A DNA stretch of 64,000 bases from a virus (IMGVR_UViG_3300044981_000350:1-64000), one strand, 5' to 3'; positions 30,704 to 44,819 are shown, numbered from the stretch's first letter. The notes: generated by a model not told the origin, from the sequence alone. Made by a program: numbers and translations.

Positions 30704-32212
30704 ATGAGTGACGATTTGGATCTCGAAGACACGTCGGAAGAGGAGCCCGAGGAGACCCCCAAGCCCGCACCGCGCAAGTCGATGCGGCCAAAACGCGGGG
30801 TTGGAAACGCAGGTGCATTACCGGCGGCCGTCGGCGTAGCCCCCGGGGCCCCCGCGCCATTCCGCCGCCAAGCTTCCGAGGCCGATGCGGTGTGGAATGA
30901 GCTCGTCGCGTGGCTTCCTTCTGCGGGATTGACCCCGCGTGACATCGCGATCCAAGTGCGTCGCGTCGCGCCCCCCGCGCCCTCCGGTGAACCCCTCCCG
31001 ATCGGTCGCGCGTTCGGCGGCGAGATGGTGAGCGGGAACAACACCGAGCCCCCCGGCTCTGCGCTTGTGCAGTTCGTCATGCGCTACATGCACATGCCCC
31101 TCACCCAGACACCGGCCAGCTACGATCTCATGTTCATGCGCAAGGCCACCGGCGCGCAACTCGCGACGGGCCGCTTGGCATTGCCTTCGGCTCAAGATTG
31201 CCAGGCGATGTTGCAGGCCGGCGAGCAAGCCGGTTTGGGGGCCCCGGGCGCACCGCCACAACAGATGTGGCAACCGCCGCCGATGTATCCGCAGGGCCCG
31301 GGGTTACCGCAGGGGTACCCTTGGCCTTCACAAGGGACCGGCTATCCCCAGACCTACCCCTCGGCGCAATTCGGGCCGCCCCCACAACCCACTGCGCCGC
31401 AAGGATTCGCGGCCCCCGGAATGGATCCCGGGGTGATGAGCGAACTCGCCTCACTCCGCGGTGCGCTCGGTGAAGCACTCGCAGCGGCGCGCGAAGGCCG
31501 TCAACCGAATATCCCCGGCATGACGCCCCCCGCAACCCCTACGGGCACCGGCGGCCTTACCGATCTCGATGTCGATCGCATTGCCGCACGCGTCGCGACG
31601 ATGATGGGCGCGGTTGCAAAAACAGTGGGGGCCCCGCCGGCACCTCCTCCGCCCGTCCCGACGGTTGCGGCGCCTCCCCCGGATTCGAGCCTCGAAGGGA
31701 TGATGCGCACCGCGGTCGCCGGCATGACCAAGCGCATCTTCGACACCGCCCTCGGGAGTGTCGAAAAGAGCGTGACGCGATCCATCGGCATCGGCGGTCT
31801 GCCGGGTGGTTCAGAAGACGATGGGGATGAAGAGCGGCCGGCGCCCGCGGAGATCATTCCGCCGGAGAAGCCCGAAGACATGGTGCCGTGGAAGGTCGGC
31901 GACGTCGGGGCCAACTGGAGTAACGGAAGCCCCGTCAAGATCGCGATGAACAAGGAGACGGGGAAATTGGATCCCATGGGCCTCGCCTTTGCGAACCCCG
32001 CGGTGGCCGAAAAGCTCATCGACGTCGCCAACGGTCTCGGGATGGCACTTCAGGATGCGATCAAAAACTTCGGGGCGAAACCCGGAGTCGGCGCACCGCC
32101 GCAGCCGAGCCCCCACGTGGTGCATTCGATCCCCGCCGGCGCCGTCGACGCTACGGTCGGGGCCTCAGATGATACGCCGCAAGCAATTCCCGACGGTTGG
32201 CAAGCGCCGTGA
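30704..32212 (+). CDS. Pro-rich putative virion/scaffold protein
   Basis: AAGGA RBS; P/Q-rich linker; several G(L/V)GAP motifs. Confidence 0.65.
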   Translation: MSDDLDLEDTSEEEPEETPKPAPRKSMRPKRGVGNAGALPAAVGVAPGAPAPFRRQASEADAVWNELVAWLPSAGLTPRDIAIQVRRVAPPAPSGEPLPIGRAFGGEMVSGNNTEPPGSALVQFVMRYMHMPLTQTPASYDLMFMRKATGAQLATGRLALPSAQDCQAMLQAGEQAGLGAPGAPPQQMWQPPPMYPQGPGLPQGYPWPSQGTGYPQTYPSAQFGPPPQPTAPQGFAAPGMDPGVMSELASLRGALGEALAAAREGRQPNIPGMTPPATPTGTGGLTDLDVDRIAARVATMMGAVAKTVGAPPAPPPPVPTVAAPPPDSSLEGMMRTAVAGMTKRIFDTALGSVEKSVTRSIGIGGLPGGSEDDGDEERPAPAEIIPPEKPEDMVPWKVGDVGANWSNGSPVKIAMNKETGKLDPMGLAFANPAVAEKLIDVANGLGMALQDAIKNFGAKPGVGAPPQPSPHVVHSIPAGAVDATVGASDDTPQAIPDGWQAP

Positions 32213-32328
32213 CTTGGTGCGATCTCGCCGAAATCGCCCTTTCGTTCGCGTCGGCGCCGGTTACGATGATGGCCCTCGCCTGCCTGGAGTGGTGGATCGA
32301 ACGCAGCCGACCCGTGTGATAGGCTTCG

Positions 32329-33639
32329 GTGGTGGTGACGCCCCATTGGCCGTCGTATCAAGGCACGGCCCGACGGGGCCTCGGGCTCGACGTGGGATCG
32401 CTCACGACGGTCGCCAGCAGCGCGGGCGCTGCGGCCAACGCCGGAGACGTCTTCAACCCGGATGATCCAACGCAGGATCTACCGGGGCAGGCTACGGCTC
32501 AGTTCAACTCGTTGGTGAATTCGGCCCAGCCCGCGGTAGCTCTACAGCAACAGCTTCAAAGCGCGATCGGCTCCGCCACCGGCCAAGCCCAAGCGGCTTT
32601 CCAAGGGTATGCGGGCGAGATCCAGGCCATCGAGAGCTACCCCGGGGCGGCGGAGGCGGCCGAAGGGATGATCACGGCCGCCGGTGGTGGTGTGCCGACG
32701 GACGCTCAGCTCCAAGGGGCCTTCACCGTCGCGGCAACCGCCGGTGCCGTGGCCCTCGGTGCGACCGCGACGGCCGCGGCGACTATCGTGGCGCCCCTCT
32801 GCGCGGTCGTATGGGGAGCCGGGTACGCGATTGGGGCCCTCGTCCAAAACATCCTCGGGATCACGAGCGGTAGCCCTGCACCATGCTCCGGCGGCGACAC
32901 CGCGGTGTACGGAACATCTCCCGGAGATCCGAACTGGCAAACGTACATGGGGTTATCGGGCCCAGAGCTCGGCGCACCGTGGGGCCCCTACGCACCCCAG
33001 CAAGCAGCGAACATCCAAACGTTGAAGAGCCTCGCCGGTAACCCGACGTACGGCGCCCCTGCGAACTGGCCCTATTGGACCCCGTACACGCGAGGGGCCT
33101 TCGAGAACTGGGCCGGCGGGATCATCATCCACGCCGAAGAGCTTTGGATGAATTGCAAGAAGGTGCCGCCGGACAACACGGCGACCACGCTCTTGAAGGG
33201 TCTCGTAGGGGCGTGGAACGCGCAGTACCCCAATGCGCCGAAGCGTCAGATCAACATCGCCGGCCTGGGGCCGACACCATTGGATGGCCAGATCAAGACG
33301 CTGAGCAACACGTCGTTTCCAACAAGTTTTCGGCCCCCGCTCTATTGGCAATGGATGGCATGGCAGGGCGATCCCATTCAGTACCTCTTGACCCAGGTCT
33401 CGAATGAGCAAGGGGGGAATATCGCGATCACCGTCGCCGACCCACCCCTGACGCCCCCCGCGGCCTCGGCCCCTACTACTTCCGCGGGTACCGCCGTCGC
33501 CAACGTCGCGGCCGGTACCGCCGTCGTCGGCGGGGCGGCACTCACCGGGACCGCAGTGTATGCTTTTGCCAAGGGTCAAGCCGTCAGCACCGTCCTCAAG
33601 TCGGGCTTGCTCGCGATCAAGGGATGGTTCATTCGATGA
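32329..33639 (+). CDS. Putative virion membrane protein (GLG leader, C-terminal hydrophobic anchor)
   Basis: RRGLG at aa 15-19; internal and C-terminal hydrophobic helices. Confidence 0.65.
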   Translation: MVVTPHWPSYQGTARRGLGLDVGSLTTVASSAGAAANAGDVFNPDDPTQDLPGQATAQFNSLVNSAQPAVALQQQLQSAIGSATGQAQAAFQGYAGEIQAIESYPGAAEAAEGMITAAGGGVPTDAQLQGAFTVAATAGAVALGATATAAATIVAPLCAVVWGAGYAIGALVQNILGITSGSPAPCSGGDTAVYGTSPGDPNWQTYMGLSGPELGAPWGPYAPQQAANIQTLKSLAGNPTYGAPANWPYWTPYTRGAFENWAGGIIIHAEELWMNCKKVPPDNTATTLLKGLVGAWNAQYPNAPKRQINIAGLGPTPLDGQIKTLSNTSFPTSFRPPLYWQWMAWQGDPIQYLLTQVSNEQGGNIAITVADPPLTPPAASAPTTSAGTAVANVAAGTAVVGGAALTGTAVYAFAKGQAVSTVLKSGLLAIKGWFIR

Positions 33640-34079
33640 AACGCCGCCGCAGAGCTCGCGCGAACCCGACGGGGGCCCAATGGCTCCTCATCTCGGGTGC
33701 AATCGGCGCCGTCGGTGTGCTGGGCTACCTCGTCTACAAGGCGAACGCCCCCGCTGCATCGCTCCCCTCCGGTGCCGGCTCGACCTACAACGTTCAGCTC
33801 TCTTCGGGTTCTCTCCCGACCATCACGATGTCGCTCTCGAAGGGCGACCAGATGAGCCTCACGCCCCCCGCGGGCGGTACCCTCCCCACCGTGACCTTCA
33901 GCCCCACGAACATCGTCGGCCCCAACCCCAACGGGGCCTACCTTGCCTACTCACCGATCGCGGTCGGTAGTACGACGTGCACGGTCAACTACACCGACAC
34001 GACCGATACAACCAGCACGACGAGCACCGCCACCGGCAACACCGAAACCGCAACCTTCACCGTGAACGTGACAGCTTGA
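33636..34079 (+). CDS. NP-leader membrane protein with small beta ectodomain
   Basis: MKRRRRARANP then TM (WLLISGAIGAVGVLGYLVY). Confidence 0.75.
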   Translation: MKRRRRARANPTGAQWLLISGAIGAVGVLGYLVYKANAPAASLPSGAGSTYNVQLSSGSLPTITMSLSKGDQMSLTPPAGGTLPTVTFSPTNIVGPNPNGAYLAYSPIAVGSTTCTVNYTDTTDTTSTTSTATGNTETATFTVNVTA

Positions 34080-43842: not shown

Positions 43843-43851
43843 ACCCCGCCG

Positions 43852-44394
43852 ATGGGAATGTGGGATCAGGCGAGCGATTGCGAGACCTGCGGCGGCGGCC
43901 TCCGCGCCTGGGGCCATCTCGCGCCGCCCAATCCTACTGTTTCCCTAGATGAGGTGAGTCCGATGGATGTTGGAAATCGATGGGGCATTTTGACGGGTGC
44001 CGGGGCCGCACCGGATCGGCTCCGGCGCGTGCCGCGGGTCTTCGCGGGGCTCGGTGACGACAGCTCCGACGATAACCCGCCCGTCGACACCGACACTACG
44101 AGCGGGAGCATCGACAGCAGCGACAACTCCGACGCTGCGGTCAACCCGACGATTTCACCGGTCACCGCCAACCCCGGCGAGACCATCTCCGCCAGCCCGA
44201 CGCCGACTGCGGTTTCAAACGCGAATGGCGGCGGCTCGACATCAAGCGGCGGTGGCGGTTCCCCGAGTGTCTCCTCAAGTACCCCCGCGAGCACGAACTA
44301 CACCCCGTGGATCATCGGGGGCGCGGTCGTCGGCGGGGCCGGCCTCCTCGGGTTCGCGCTCTGGCGGCGGCACCACAAGCTGCATCGGCGATGA
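43852..44394 (+). CDS. GLG-leader protein, S/T/D-rich, C-terminal TM and basic tail
   Basis: [36 protein letters not shown]. Confidence 0.7.
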   Translation: MGMWDQASDCETCGGGLRAWGHLAPPNPTVSLDEVSPMDVGNRWGILTGAGAAPDRLRRVPRVFAGLGDDSSDDNPPVDTDTTSGSIDSSDNSDAAVNPTISPVTANPGETISASPTPTAVSNANGGGSTSSGGGGSPSVSSSTPASTNYTPWIIGGAVVGGAGLLGFALWRRHHKLHRR

Positions 44395-44819
44395 AGCTCC
44401 TCGGCGCCGGTAATCGTGGCGCCGGGCTTGGGGATGCCTCGATCCTTCCGGCGGATCCACTCACCCAAGCGACTGCGGATCTTGTGGCGTGGCTCGTGGC
44501 GAGTCCGTGCACGCAAAACGCCGTCACGCAGGTAAGCGATTTCCAAACGGCGTGGAACACTTCGACGCTCGGCGGAACGCTCACCGTCGACGGTAAATAC
44601 GGGCCCCAAACACGCGGCGCGCTCCAAGCGGCGATGAACGCGGCGGGGACGGGGAGCGCCCCCGCAGATTGCTTCACGTCCGCGAGTGCGGTGTGCCCTC
44701 AGGCTGCGGCCGCTGCGTCATTCGCACCCTGGATCATCGGCACCGCCGTGGTCGCTGGCGCTGGTGTTATTGCGTACACTTATTGGCAGCTCCACCACGC
44801 TCGCGGCGGCCGCCGCTGA
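44391..44819 (+). CDS. GLG-leader peptidoglycan-binding-domain protein with C-terminal TM
   Basis: [15 protein letters not shown]...[15 protein letters not shown] (PG_binding_1 pattern); [13 protein letters not shown]. Confidence 0.75.

Follow-up and report, generated by a model that had tools for sequence, protein, structure and literature searches.

The window analysed here is a 64,000-nucleotide stretch (IMGVR_UViG_3300044981_000350:1-64000) from an uncultivated, 73-kb bacterial virus. A number of proteins in its structural block carry the tripeptide Gly-Leu-Gly (GLG), and the eight sites named by a sequence-only reading are all present in the translations at the residues given there. The genes concerned and their motif sites all lie on the plus strand. 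Protein 30704 (30704–32212) is polyprotein-like, with 502 aa comprising an acidic N-terminus, a middle rich in Pro and Gln, and G-Phi-G(-A-P) sites at several positions, among them AGLGAP (GLG at aa 177-179; 31232–31240) and GVGAP near aa 461. The 436-aa tail-anchored protein 32329 (32329–33639) has a short TPHWP...RR-GLG leader containing RRGLG (aa 17-19; 32377–32385). In the transglutaminase-fold cysteine peptidase candidate 35717 (35717–36931), a catalytic domain (aa 1-200), a linker with PRGLG (aa 202-204; 36320–36328), a second domain and a C-terminal membrane anchor follow one another. The 500-aa protein 37859 (37859–39361) consists of a K/R-rich N-terminal part of 240 aa, an ENP junction, a hydrophobic, conserved middle, SSGLG (aa 404-406; 39068–39076) and a variable Cys-containing tail.

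Two capsid-type proteins come next: 39467 (39467–40798), a putative major capsid protein of 443 aa with the highest GC3 in the window (0.90) and the sequence AGLGSAGLG (aa 41-43 and 46-48), and 40833 (40833–41588), a predicted jelly-roll capsid-type protein of 251 aa with SSGLG at aa 26-28. The 142-aa tail-anchored protein 44391 (44391–44819) has GAGLGD (aa 12-14) just upstream of a conserved domain, and in its 180-aa tail-anchored paralogue 43852 (43852–44394) FAGLGDD (aa 66-68) is followed by an acidic/Ser-rich stretch. The C-terminal hydrophobic anchors ascribed to 32329, 35717, 43852 and 44391 are visible in the translations. A proposed complementarity of GLG to the NP class of proteins is roughly true, but statistically it counts for nothing: the small NP proteins are of a length at which no GLG would be expected.

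Enrichment of the motif in the structural block

In the 24 proteins of the structural block (6,021 residues), GLG occurs 17 times compared to 4.8–4.9 expected from the composition of each protein, a count that none of 5000 per-protein shuffles reached (maximum 15). The other 35 proteins (8,228 residues) are not enriched (8 vs 5.0; Fisher one-sided p = 0.008 for the block against the other window proteins). The observation made from sequence alone is real. Because 13 different 9-mers encode the 17 sites, the signal resides in the protein and is not a DNA word. The N-terminal bias is weak, with 8/17 sites among residues 1-70 (binomial p 0.07), and among GxG tripeptides in the window only those with x = L are enriched. 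We also counted the motif in three related genomes, using automatic gene calls. Two of them show the excess in the block, G001 with GLG 10 vs 4.7 (16/1000 shuffles) and G-Phi-G 28 vs 15.2 (1/1000), and G003 with 14 vs 3.6 and 30 vs 11.4 (both 0/1000), and neither is enriched outside the block. In the G002 block GLG is not in excess (3 vs 4.3), while the excess of G-Phi-G is marginal (22 vs 15.2; 50/1000).

As judged from homologous columns, where relatives have GFG, GVG, GMG or GIG, the tag proper is G-[LVFMI]-G (G-Phi-G), often followed by A/S and P, and is thus broader than GLG; G-Phi-G-[AS]-P is found 11 times in 22,700 block residues and twice in 52,888 residues elsewhere. The choice of GLG as the motif captured a real signal but defined it too narrowly, and one related genome lacks the GLG excess.

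A Gly/Leu-rich composition, glycine packing in membrane helices or structural glycines, singled out post hoc, could yield such a pattern with no dedicated function. Roughly half of the 17 GLG in the window are indeed not tag sites, being transmembrane Gly motifs or unconserved: three lie in hydrophobic segments (34292 aa 26, 36928 aa 28 and 37859 aa 321), that at 41601 aa 104 falls in a region where conservation is limited to LGPPN, and that at 30704 aa 177 is unconserved in the aligned relatives; for the GLG at 32329 aa 312 and at 44827 aa 143, no informative homologues are available. Among 2,985 tripeptides seen, GLG ranks fourth in over-representation, below collagen-repeat triplets, and its Poisson p of 1.5e-5, taken post hoc by itself, is borderline and fails correction over all tripeptides; the lack of enrichment in G002 points in the same direction. 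However, the shuffles control for the composition of each protein, three of the four genomes (the window and two of the three relatives) have the excess in the block and not in the rest, and composition does not explain near-invariant Gly pairs within variable leaders in alignments of 115–121 sequences. We consider the absence of a function very improbable; it is largely refuted by positional conservation.

Positional conservation in six protein families

The strongest support for a functional motif is its positional conservation in homologues, together with the replication in related genomes. The position of G-Phi-G is conserved in six non-homologous families (39467, 40833, 37859, 30704, 44391 and 35717), which favours a functional motif. 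An unbiased scan for residues at least 85% conserved with variable flanks returned mainly motif glycines: G26, G28, G39 and G41 of 40833, G404 of 37859, G364 of 30704 and G28 of 39467. In predicted structures the sites fall in low-confidence, non-regular stretches with a leader helix before and a folded core after.

Homologues of protein 39467 number 215 at E≤0.001, and none of them is named. The AF2 model of 39467 (pLDDT 79.9) is beta-rich with a low-confidence leader. This leader (aa 1-47) is basic and precedes a conserved core starting at S49. Its G-x-G elements are those at aa 28-31, reading GASG here and VGxG in relatives, and at aa 41-43 and 46-48. The last of these (39602–39610), at the leader/core junction, is the best conserved site in the homologue alignment, with G in 119/121 sequences, then L in 86, F in 19, M in 6 and V in 4, and G again in 119/121; in the AF2 model it directly precedes the helix 48-58. 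The second site upstream (39587–39595) is kept by divergent relatives, although with a spacer that varies, and is absent in others (for example AATL in L002/L003).

In 40833 (AF2 pLDDT 85.7), a leader helix (aa 9-19) and an unstructured stretch (aa 20-48; pLDDT <50 at aa 37-42) with two G-Phi-G sites precede a core starting at aa 49. Structure matches by VIA, considered with respect to the vertical jelly-roll capsid type of membrane-containing viruses, are to the capsid proteins of EhV-201 (MCP, Z 7.8), HHIV-2 (7.2) and PBCV-1 (7.2), those of 39467 to jelly-rolls are weak (Z≤5.5), and all of these scores fall under the tool's caution line of Z 8; Foldseek matched 40833 to the SPV1 capsid protein (E 6.6e-4, TM 0.37-0.47). 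The GLG at aa 26-28 (40908–40916) forms a GLGAP island with variable flanks (G 112/121, L 79 or V 19, G 109/121, A 91, P 85). A GFG at aa 39-41 (40947–40955), absent from the earlier list, is conserved as well (G 118/121, L 66 or F 36, G 113/121, then C 80). Some homologues have just 5–8 residues ahead of the motif, so its role cannot be leader removal alone.

In 37859, the GLG at aa 404-406 lies in the context (L/F)P(S/A/T)-(A/S/T)-GLG, and 20/21 homologues carry it. In 30704, a GIG at aa 362-364 (31787–31795), part of a conserved G-Phi-G-x-P preceding an acidic stretch, is found in 8/8 loci; it escaped the sequence-only reading because this genome has GIG in place of GLG. Among 115 rows of distant representatives, this site has G in 75, G in 80, A in 44 and P in 93, with 23–26 gaps, indicating that part of the family is without it. 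In the 32329 family, three of the four genomes compared have G-Phi-G at aa 13-17 and the fourth has GVA; in the 44391 family, 7/10 aligned rows have G-Phi-G at the junction. The sole homologue of 43852 comes from L007, which is near-identical to the window (100%). A TPHWP-x-G-Phi-G module is common to the N-terminus of the 32329 family, some members of the 44391 family and the 35717 linker (13/67 there). Among the G-Phi-G sites we saw no common specificity in upstream positions: the residue two before the first Gly varies over 109 block instances (A 22, S 14, V 11, P 10, L 8, K 7, Q 6) and is R/K at the best conserved site of 39467 and A/P at those of 40833.

Cleavage or assembly element

We propose, with a probability of about 0.5, that the G-Phi-G tag in these unrelated virion proteins marks maturation cleavage sites of a viral protease. 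Leaders would be removed from the putative capsid protein 39467, the predicted jelly-roll protein 40833 and the tail-anchored proteins 32329 and 44391; inter-domain linkers would be cut in 30704 and 35717, and 37859 would release its C-terminal tail. The solid part of this reading is the enrichment, the positional conservation, the placement at unstructured junctions and the intact catalytic residues of the enzyme candidates. The idea that GLG is a maturation site, put forward from the window alone, is partly supported: the enrichment and the positional conservation whose lack would have refuted it are both there, and the cut itself is what we infer.

A less probable reading, yet one of some weight, is that G-Phi-G is a conserved assembly element that stays uncleaved, acting as a flexible hinge, a helix or strand cap, or a peptide docking to a common partner such as the membrane, a scaffold or the capsid lattice. 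The 39467 motif stands right before a helix and that of 35717 adjoins the next conserved domain; counted against cleavage, the motif of 39467 and of the type-1 domain of 35717 adjoins conserved sequence and could be the first fold element. Moreover, the leaders have conserved patterns, R..VGxG.P.D..KI.AA in 39467 and TPEQF..LL in 40833, as expected if they remain functional, and the 40833 family retains its motif even with a leader of 5–8 residues. A conserved leader also fits cleavage, however, as the capsid-targeting leaders of phage T4 illustrate. The motif of 40833, 30704 and 37859 stands isolated where the surrounding sequence varies and is of low confidence, and no fold adjoins it there. 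A structural cap also leaves unexplained why one class of tripeptide should turn up in six families that are unrelated, and several times per protein.

Candidate proteases

If the tag is cleaved, the cutter would be a virus-encoded cysteine protease acting during or after particle assembly, for which the membrane-anchored 35717 product is the best candidate; by cutting at this motif in itself it may also release its catalytic domain. C112, H144 and D159, in the order Cys-His-Asp, are invariant in 67/67 aligned sequences of its family. The Pfam match to Transglut_core (PF01841) has E 0.0065, at 17.2 bits compared to a gathering cut-off of 23; in the family, 25/54 members match at E≤0.01 (best 6e-8). 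Residues 1-188 align with a Transglut_core cluster in the Atlas at TM 0.82, with predicted models on both sides, and no significant sequence match to solved chains was found. The gene is present in 15/15 loci whose sequence reaches 6 kb or more upstream of the capsid gene. For the two commonest types of second domain, G-Phi-G (GAG included) adjoins that domain, at its junction with the catalytic one, in 28/30 sequences (21/22 and 7/8). Judged by its invariant triad, constant synteny and motif at its own domain junction, 35717 is a plausible maturation protease. Its fold neighbours include pseudomurein endoisopeptidase (Pei)-type clusters, a resemblance to pseudomurein/cell-wall peptidases, and it may instead be a cell-wall peptidase serving virion entry.

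The sites could also be cleaved by another enzyme, with 35717 an entry peptidase, which we regard as unlikely. The alternative candidate is a putative papain (C1)-like cysteine peptidase (51680–52609, plus strand) encoded beyond the region covered by the sequence-only reading. It keeps Q61, C67, H240 and N261 in 3/3 sequences and has an Atlas feature score of 0.98 to clusters of which 47%, 37% and 94% of the members carry Peptidase_C1; it has no Pfam match at E≤0.01, and its best PDB sequence match is cathepsin L (E 0.4). Papain-family enzymes favour a hydrophobic P2 residue, which suits cleavage at G-Phi-G|A/S; the bond cut would be G-Phi-G|A/S given such an S2 pocket and G-Phi|G if the enzyme is adenain-like. 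Against this candidate, its gene lies outside the structural block, with a counterpart that is clear in 2/3 related genomes and weak in G002 (E 2.3e-4), whereas 35717 is found at every locus covering its position. A host protease could also act, as could the product of 27519, which has an H-x-H-x7-S-xx-D signature and a RadC Pfam match (E 4e-23), but one published account argues that RadC-type JAB domains are devoid of the groove for the ubiquitin tail and have nucleic acids as their targets (PMC5512222). A small HExxH metallopeptidase is encoded at 14199–14720 and is a further possible cutter. Pfam revealed no clan CE peptidase (Peptidase_C5/C48/C57-like) at E≤0.01 among 24 + 24 + 20 window proteins, a scan in which HMM detection could miss distant members, and among the scanned window proteins there was no PHROG or Pfam match to prohead proteases and no match to a C39 peptidase.

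Relation to known maturation systems

Cleavage at the tag would resemble the action of adenain, which is described as cutting pVI at IVGL|G and pTP at QRGF|G (PMC4246237). In the sites given there, G-L-G and G-F-G are part of a short Gly motif carried by several unrelated virion and core precursors. The substrates of adenain include a basic protein that condenses DNA, comparable to 37859 with its K/R-rich part. Adenain differs in belonging to clan CE, while the candidates here have the papain/transglutaminase order Cys-His-Asp/Asn; its P4 preference for M/I/L is not seen at the sites of this virus, whose host is prokaryotic and for which cleavage is proposed from sequence. The cysteine protease of the virophage mavirus (MVP) is reported to cut at GG|X and at GY|G, the GX|G motifs being conserved; it trims several GG|X / GX|G sites of the jelly-roll capsid protein, and another virion protein is cut at GK|G (PMC6048507). 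The present case, with its predicted jelly-roll capsid-type proteins, is similar to that of MVP, with which ASFV pS273R and poxvirus I7 can be grouped, in having several Gly-motif sites conserved across relatives, but there the capsid sites are C-terminal and here mostly in N-terminal leaders, and the protease family is another.

In a published evolutionary model, as outlined in PMC6260650, it was in eukaryotes that the lineage gained its maturation protease. Tentatively, prokaryotic jelly-roll viruses of 60–80 kb with many small membrane proteins might trim their precursors at a shared Gly-X-Gly tag by a self-releasing, membrane-anchored transglutaminase-fold protease. In this tentative reading they are a widespread, uncultivated lineage whose particles mature as those of adenoviruses and virophages do, but with an unrelated protease. 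If true, a prokaryotic jelly-roll virus would have a maturation pathway of this kind, either convergent or ancestral, with ENP as a second conserved junction tag beside Gly-X-Gly. To our knowledge, no such pathway is known for prokaryotic jelly-roll viruses.

Tailed-phage prohead proteases (T4 gp21, HK97 type) take leaders off several head proteins at a shared motif and process themselves. They share with the present case the short N-terminal leaders and common motif, but are serine enzymes with the fold of herpesvirus assemblin, and they cut after Glu or other residues. LapG, which cuts at a small-residue Ala-Ala motif, and Pei (C71) have the Cys-His-Asp triad on a transglutaminase core as 35717 does, but their substrates are an adhesin or the cell wall, not virion precursors. 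Double-glycine leaders, in which an amphipathic helix and a Gly pair precede the mature part, are cut by a papain-fold C39 peptidase; that system exports bacteriocins through ABC transporters, unlike the virus, but the 40833 leader resembles them.

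Genome context of the structural gene block

The viral record from which the window is taken is 73,439 bp long and complete according to CheckV; GC content in the window is ~64%. Replication genes at 6–27 kb encode a VapE-type primase, a family A polymerase fused to UDG, an SF1 helicase and Dam, and an integrase is encoded at 54,863–55,981. The structural block at 27.5–46.8 kb comprises ~24 genes, all on one strand, and many of its products have one hydrophobic segment apiece. The block is almost without matches in Pfam and PHROG, the exceptions being a RadC/JAB domain at the end of the product of gene 27519 (genes are named by start coordinate), collagen-like fibre proteins at 44,827–46,785, and 35717, which weakly matches Transglut_core. 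Five fibre-like proteins with collagen repeats (G-A-T / G-P-T) occupy two places in the genome, 5–3754 and 44827–46785.

We take the 39467 product to be the putative major capsid protein. Its gene shows a GC3 of 0.90, the highest value of the window, and a search at E ≤ 0.001 gave 215 homologues, all unnamed, many of them from contigs 60–82 kb in length. The AF2 model of this protein (pLDDT 79.9) is beta-rich with weak jelly-roll matches (VIA-wide Z ≤ 5.5); Foldseek searches of the fold gave no PDB match at E ≤ 0.001 and one in BFVD, an unnamed 211-aa protein (E 2.2e-4). The gene directly downstream, 40833, encodes a protein (AF2 pLDDT 85.7) whose core matches vertical jelly-roll capsid proteins of EhV-201 (Z 7.8), HHIV-2 (7.2) and PBCV-1 (7.2), as well as SPV1 (Foldseek E 6.6e-4); these predicted-fold scores lie under the tool's caution line and are suggestive. 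Given the capsid-fold matches and the hydrophobic segments of the block proteins, our working picture is a membrane-containing, jelly-roll-type prokaryotic virus. Pfam and PHROGs scans of proteins from the window and from positions 64001–73439 of the record found no terminase, portal or FtsK/HerA-type packaging ATPase, and the only strict Walker A motif among 85 called genes is that of the SF1 helicase (22185–23582). As to cultured relatives, tblastn with the 39467 product gave zero matches in 50,697 GenBank phage records, and prokaryote genomes yielded only two short MAG contigs and one spurious match.

Enrichment of the Gly tag in virion proteins

The sequence-only reading took GLG, recurring at the ends of short leaders, for a maturation cleavage site, and every GLG it listed is present in the translations. 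GLG occurs 17 times in the block (24 manually delimited proteins, 6,021 residues) against 4.8–4.9 expected from per-protein composition, and none of 5000 per-protein shuffles reached this number (maximum 15). The 35 other window proteins (8,228 residues) contain 8 against 5.0 expected, so that the excess over other proteins which that reading had proposed to look for was indeed found (Fisher one-sided p = 0.008). Among the 2,985 tripeptides seen, GLG is the fourth most over-represented, after ATG, GAT and TGA, which owe their rank to the collagen-repeat proteins. Its Poisson p of 1.5e-5 becomes borderline once corrected for all tripeptides, and enrichment alone is therefore not decisive. The 17 sites are written by 13 different 9-mers, placing the signal at the protein level; together with flat frame counts of the degenerate pattern, this rules out an explanation at the DNA level. 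Only x = L shows an excess among GxG tripeptides in this genome.

We repeated the count in three related complete or near-complete records (G001–G003) alongside the window's own (G000), with genes called by a simple codon-usage caller that recovers the manual window calls except two overlapping genes, and with block limits set by homology, running from the counterpart of 27519 to a point 5.2 kb beyond that of 41601. GLG was observed 16 times in the G000 block against a shuffle mean of 4.8 (reached by 0 of 1000 shuffles), 10 against 4.7 in G001 (16), 3 against 4.3 in G002 (810) and 14 against 3.6 in G003 (0), the G001 count being made without its capsid gene, which spans two fetched pieces. The GLG excess thus recurs in two of the three relatives. 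For the broader motif G-[LFMIV]-G, the values were 29 against 16.5 (1), 28 against 15.2 (1), 22 against 15.2 (50) and 30 against 11.4 (0), respectively. G002 has Val or Met at homologous sites: RRGMGAV in the capsid protein, VGVGAPP in the 30704 homologue and VGVGAV in the 44391 homologue. Outside the block there is no enrichment in any of the genomes, the observed value being reached by 170 to 781 of 1000 shuffles; the one exception is the broader motif in G002 (60/1000). The virion block is enriched in the tag, written below as G-Phi-G and often followed by A/S and P, and the tag is confined to it.

Positional conservation in capsid-type proteins

The main evidence for the tag is its conserved position. 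In an alignment of 121 capsid protein sequences (the window's 39467 product and the best 120 of its 215 matches), the columns of aa 46, 47 and 48 contain G in 119, a mostly hydrophobic residue (L 86, F 19, M 6, V 4, A 2, I 2, T 1) and G in 119; the five columns ahead are variable, and the conserved core S-I-L-D follows immediately. Upstream, a V-G-x-G element (GASG, aa 28–31, in the window) has its glycines in 118/121 and 112/121 sequences. Divergent members carry an additional upstream GLG with a spacer of variable length; the GLG at aa 41, missing from L002/L003, is of this kind. Conservation is only moderate for the GLG at aa 350, inside the core, whose glycines are kept in 82 and 93 of 121 sequences.

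The 40833 family has two sites, each aligned over 121 sequences. The first, with variable flanks, reads G26 (112), L (79) or V (19) at aa 27, G28 (109), A29 (91) and P30 (85); the second, at aa 39–41, reads G (118), L (66) or F (36), G (113), then C (80). In the AF2 model both sites fall within the sole low-confidence stretch, aa 20–48 (below 50 at aa 37–42), between a leader helix (aa 9–19) and the core, which begins at aa 49.

Positional conservation in other virion proteins

Near-duplicates of the window, L005 and L004 (L007, L006 and L015, respectively) were dropped from the related loci, and L017, L026 and L028 were left out as the same records as L006, L002 and L003. In the 37859 family, the GLG at aa 404–406, inside (L/F)P(S/A/T)-(A/S/T)-GLG, is retained in 20/21 homologues; the tail behind it varies in length and contains Cys pairs. 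In the 30704 family, G-Phi-G-x-P stands between a conserved helix and an acidic stretch in 8/8 loci; the window has GIG here, which is why the sequence-only reading could not see the site. A wider alignment of 115 rows (the window and, out of 137 distant representatives, the 114 with 400 aa or more) gave G 75, G 80, A 44 and P 93 at the site, with 23–26 gaps stemming from a subfamily that lacks it; several members have further G-Phi-G-A-P sites in their N-terminal and middle parts.

Of 10 aligned rows in the 44391 family, 7 carry G-Phi-G just ahead of the conserved domain and two carry AFG, and the paralogue 43852 aligns elsewhere; a second site, GLG(A/S)(T/V)P, is found upstream in several members. 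In the 32329 family the tag follows a TPHWP leader at aa 13–17 in 3/4 genomes, the fourth having GVA. The catalytic domain of the 35717 family ends in EIVTLG(K/R)P, a linker of ~3 to >60 residues follows, and G-Phi-G directly adjoins the next domain in 21/22 sequences of the SVLGYPT type and 7/8 of the VTPGDVL type, with Ala as Phi in a few. A PHW(P)-x-G-Phi-G module precedes this site in 13/67 members and also opens the 32329 family and some 44391-family members; as the module is common to several families, the tag moves between protein families.

The peptide TPHWP(Q) stands immediately upstream of G-Phi-G in the window (32329–33639), L004 (14084–14599), L012 (4825–5586) and the 35717 homologues P0250–P0280, as if this leader module had been exchanged among virion genes of three otherwise unrelated families.

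An unbiased scan for residues at least 85% conserved with flanks averaging 45% or less returned 21 positions in eight families, 7 of them glycines of G-Phi-G-type motifs. Position in homologues, on which the earlier claim was to be judged, thus spoke for the tag: across six unrelated families it keeps its place in unstructured sequence, at the junctions formed by leaders, linkers and tails.

Not every GLG is such a site. Those within hydrophobic segments (34292 aa 26, 36928 aa 28 and 37859 aa 321, the last not conserved) look like ordinary glycine packing motifs. At 41601 aa 104 LGPPN alone is conserved; the GLG at 30704 aa 177 is not conserved, and that at aa 444 is conserved in close relatives only. 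For 32329 aa 312, 43852 aa 66 and 44827 aa 143, informative homologues are lacking. After removal of conserved and membrane sites, the remaining GLG count is near expectation.

Candidate peptidases

The virus encodes two cysteine peptidases with intact catalytic residues. C112, H144 and D159 of the transglutaminase-fold candidate 35717 are invariant in 67/67 sequences, and 25/54 family members match Transglut_core at E ≤ 0.01. Its Atlas model aligns to viral transglutaminase-like clusters (TM 0.82) and also to clusters of the pseudomurein-peptidase type; sequence and profile searches against solved structures gave no match at E ≤ 1. All 15 loci that reach 6 kb or more upstream of the capsid gene contain the 35717 gene, whose product has its anchor at the C-terminus and bears the tag between its own domains. 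A complex prediction of 35717 aa 1–200 with 40833 aa 1–62 scored 0.02, which gives no verdict and is not evidence either way. If cleavage occurs, the 35717 product would be the enzyme by a modest balance of probability.

The second peptidase (51680–52609) carries the papain Q/C/H/N set in 3/3 sequences, and its nearest Atlas clusters carry Peptidase_C1 (score 0.98); a Pfam scan of the product gave zero matches. The gene lies outside the block and is weakly detectable in G002. This papain C1-like peptidase may belong to lysis or to maturation. Its neighbours encode a GroES homologue (50477–50782) and a 212-aa hydrophobic protein (51034–51672).

The 27519 product has an intact JAB signature, H-x-H-x7-S-xx-D. 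RadC-type JAB domains are argued to be without the ubiquitin-tail groove and not to bind a Gly-Gly tail (PMC5512222), and a role as Gly-Gly peptidase was down-weighted on that ground. This 490-aa protein (27519–28991) is the first of the structural block in 4/4 genomes; RadC/JAB occupies its last 120 residues, and the first 360 are matchless.

The tag as a proposed cleavage site

We infer with a probability of about 0.5 that the tag is a cleavage site. What stands of the sequence-only reading is a conserved, positioned tag, broader than GLG; for cleavage itself the odds are about even. Leaders of 12–55 residues would then be removed from 39467, 40833, 32329 and 44391, 30704 would be cut into several pieces, 37859 would shed its Cys-containing tail, and 35717 would free its catalytic domain from the anchor. 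If the enzyme is of papain type (clan CA), its S2 pocket being hydrophobic, the scissile bond would be G-Phi-G|A/S; under an adenain-like rule it would be G-Phi|G. Judged from the sequences only, LPS[SA]G in 37859 was also considered as a sortase-like signal, along with Tat/Sec signals and G|F cleavage of the prepilin type; all were dropped, as no following membrane segment or h-region fits.

Maturation cleavage at Gly motifs is known from adenoviruses, virophages, asfarviruses and poxviruses, whose hosts are eukaryotes. Adenovirus precursors are cut at, for example, IVGL|G and QRGF|G (PMC4246237); in mavirus, GG|X, GY|G and GK|G are the sites cut in MCP and MV13, and GX|G motifs are conserved (PMC6048507). 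A published model has the protease acquired from a eukaryotic transposable DNA element (PMC6260650). Compared with these accounts, the logic and even the tripeptide are close, yet no clan CE protease family was detected by Pfam among the window proteins scanned, and the hydrophobic P4 of adenain sites is absent at the tags. The system would work like adenovirus/virophage maturation but is not a member of that family. A literature search found no description of proteolytic maturation in a prokaryotic membrane-containing jelly-roll virus, which is not proof of absence. If real, Gly-motif maturation would here take place in a prokaryotic virus and depend on a different protease. The tag on at least six virion protein families, together with a syntenic cysteine peptidase, yields a definite prediction that can be tested at low cost. 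Confirmation would make the tag an aid in annotating mature protein boundaries in hundreds of metagenomic relatives of this virus group, whose structural genes are nearly without Pfam or PHROG matches.

Asn-Pro junctions and neighbouring domains

The 37859 family has a second junction tag, where the K/R-rich N-terminal part passes into a hydrophobic part (38570–38600, aa ~240–246). It reads [AVT][ML]-[ED]-N-P-[LM]-x-x-x-E, or R-R-N-P-S in L002/L003, and Asn-Pro is present in 19/19 homologues covering the region. The N-termini of six small proteins of the block (33624, 34292, 34748, 42789, 43200 and 43630) show, in this order, a basic stretch, (E)NP (ENGP in 34292) and a membrane segment. The Asn-Pro junction may self-cleave like the NPTH site of flagellar/T3SS switch proteins, a lead only.

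Lys, Arg, Ala and Ser make up nearly all of the ~240 residues encoded at 37859–38580, which are joined to a conserved, membrane-associated domain and are a candidate for a protamine-like, membrane-anchored DNA-condensing part. The tail past GLG (39077–39361 and homologues) contains CxxC-type Cys pairs, CAPC and, in relatives, CANCTTGVGSCC, and has a conserved NWG..DE at its end; speculatively, this Cys-bearing tail recalls the Cys-bearing pVIc cofactor peptide of adenovirus. The C-terminal 155 residues of the 36928–37581 product form a conserved domain that 19 loci share, in each case flanked by the homologues of 35717 and 37859; it stands alone in most relatives and is fused to a membrane segment and an (E/D)NP stretch in the window, L002/L003 and L013.
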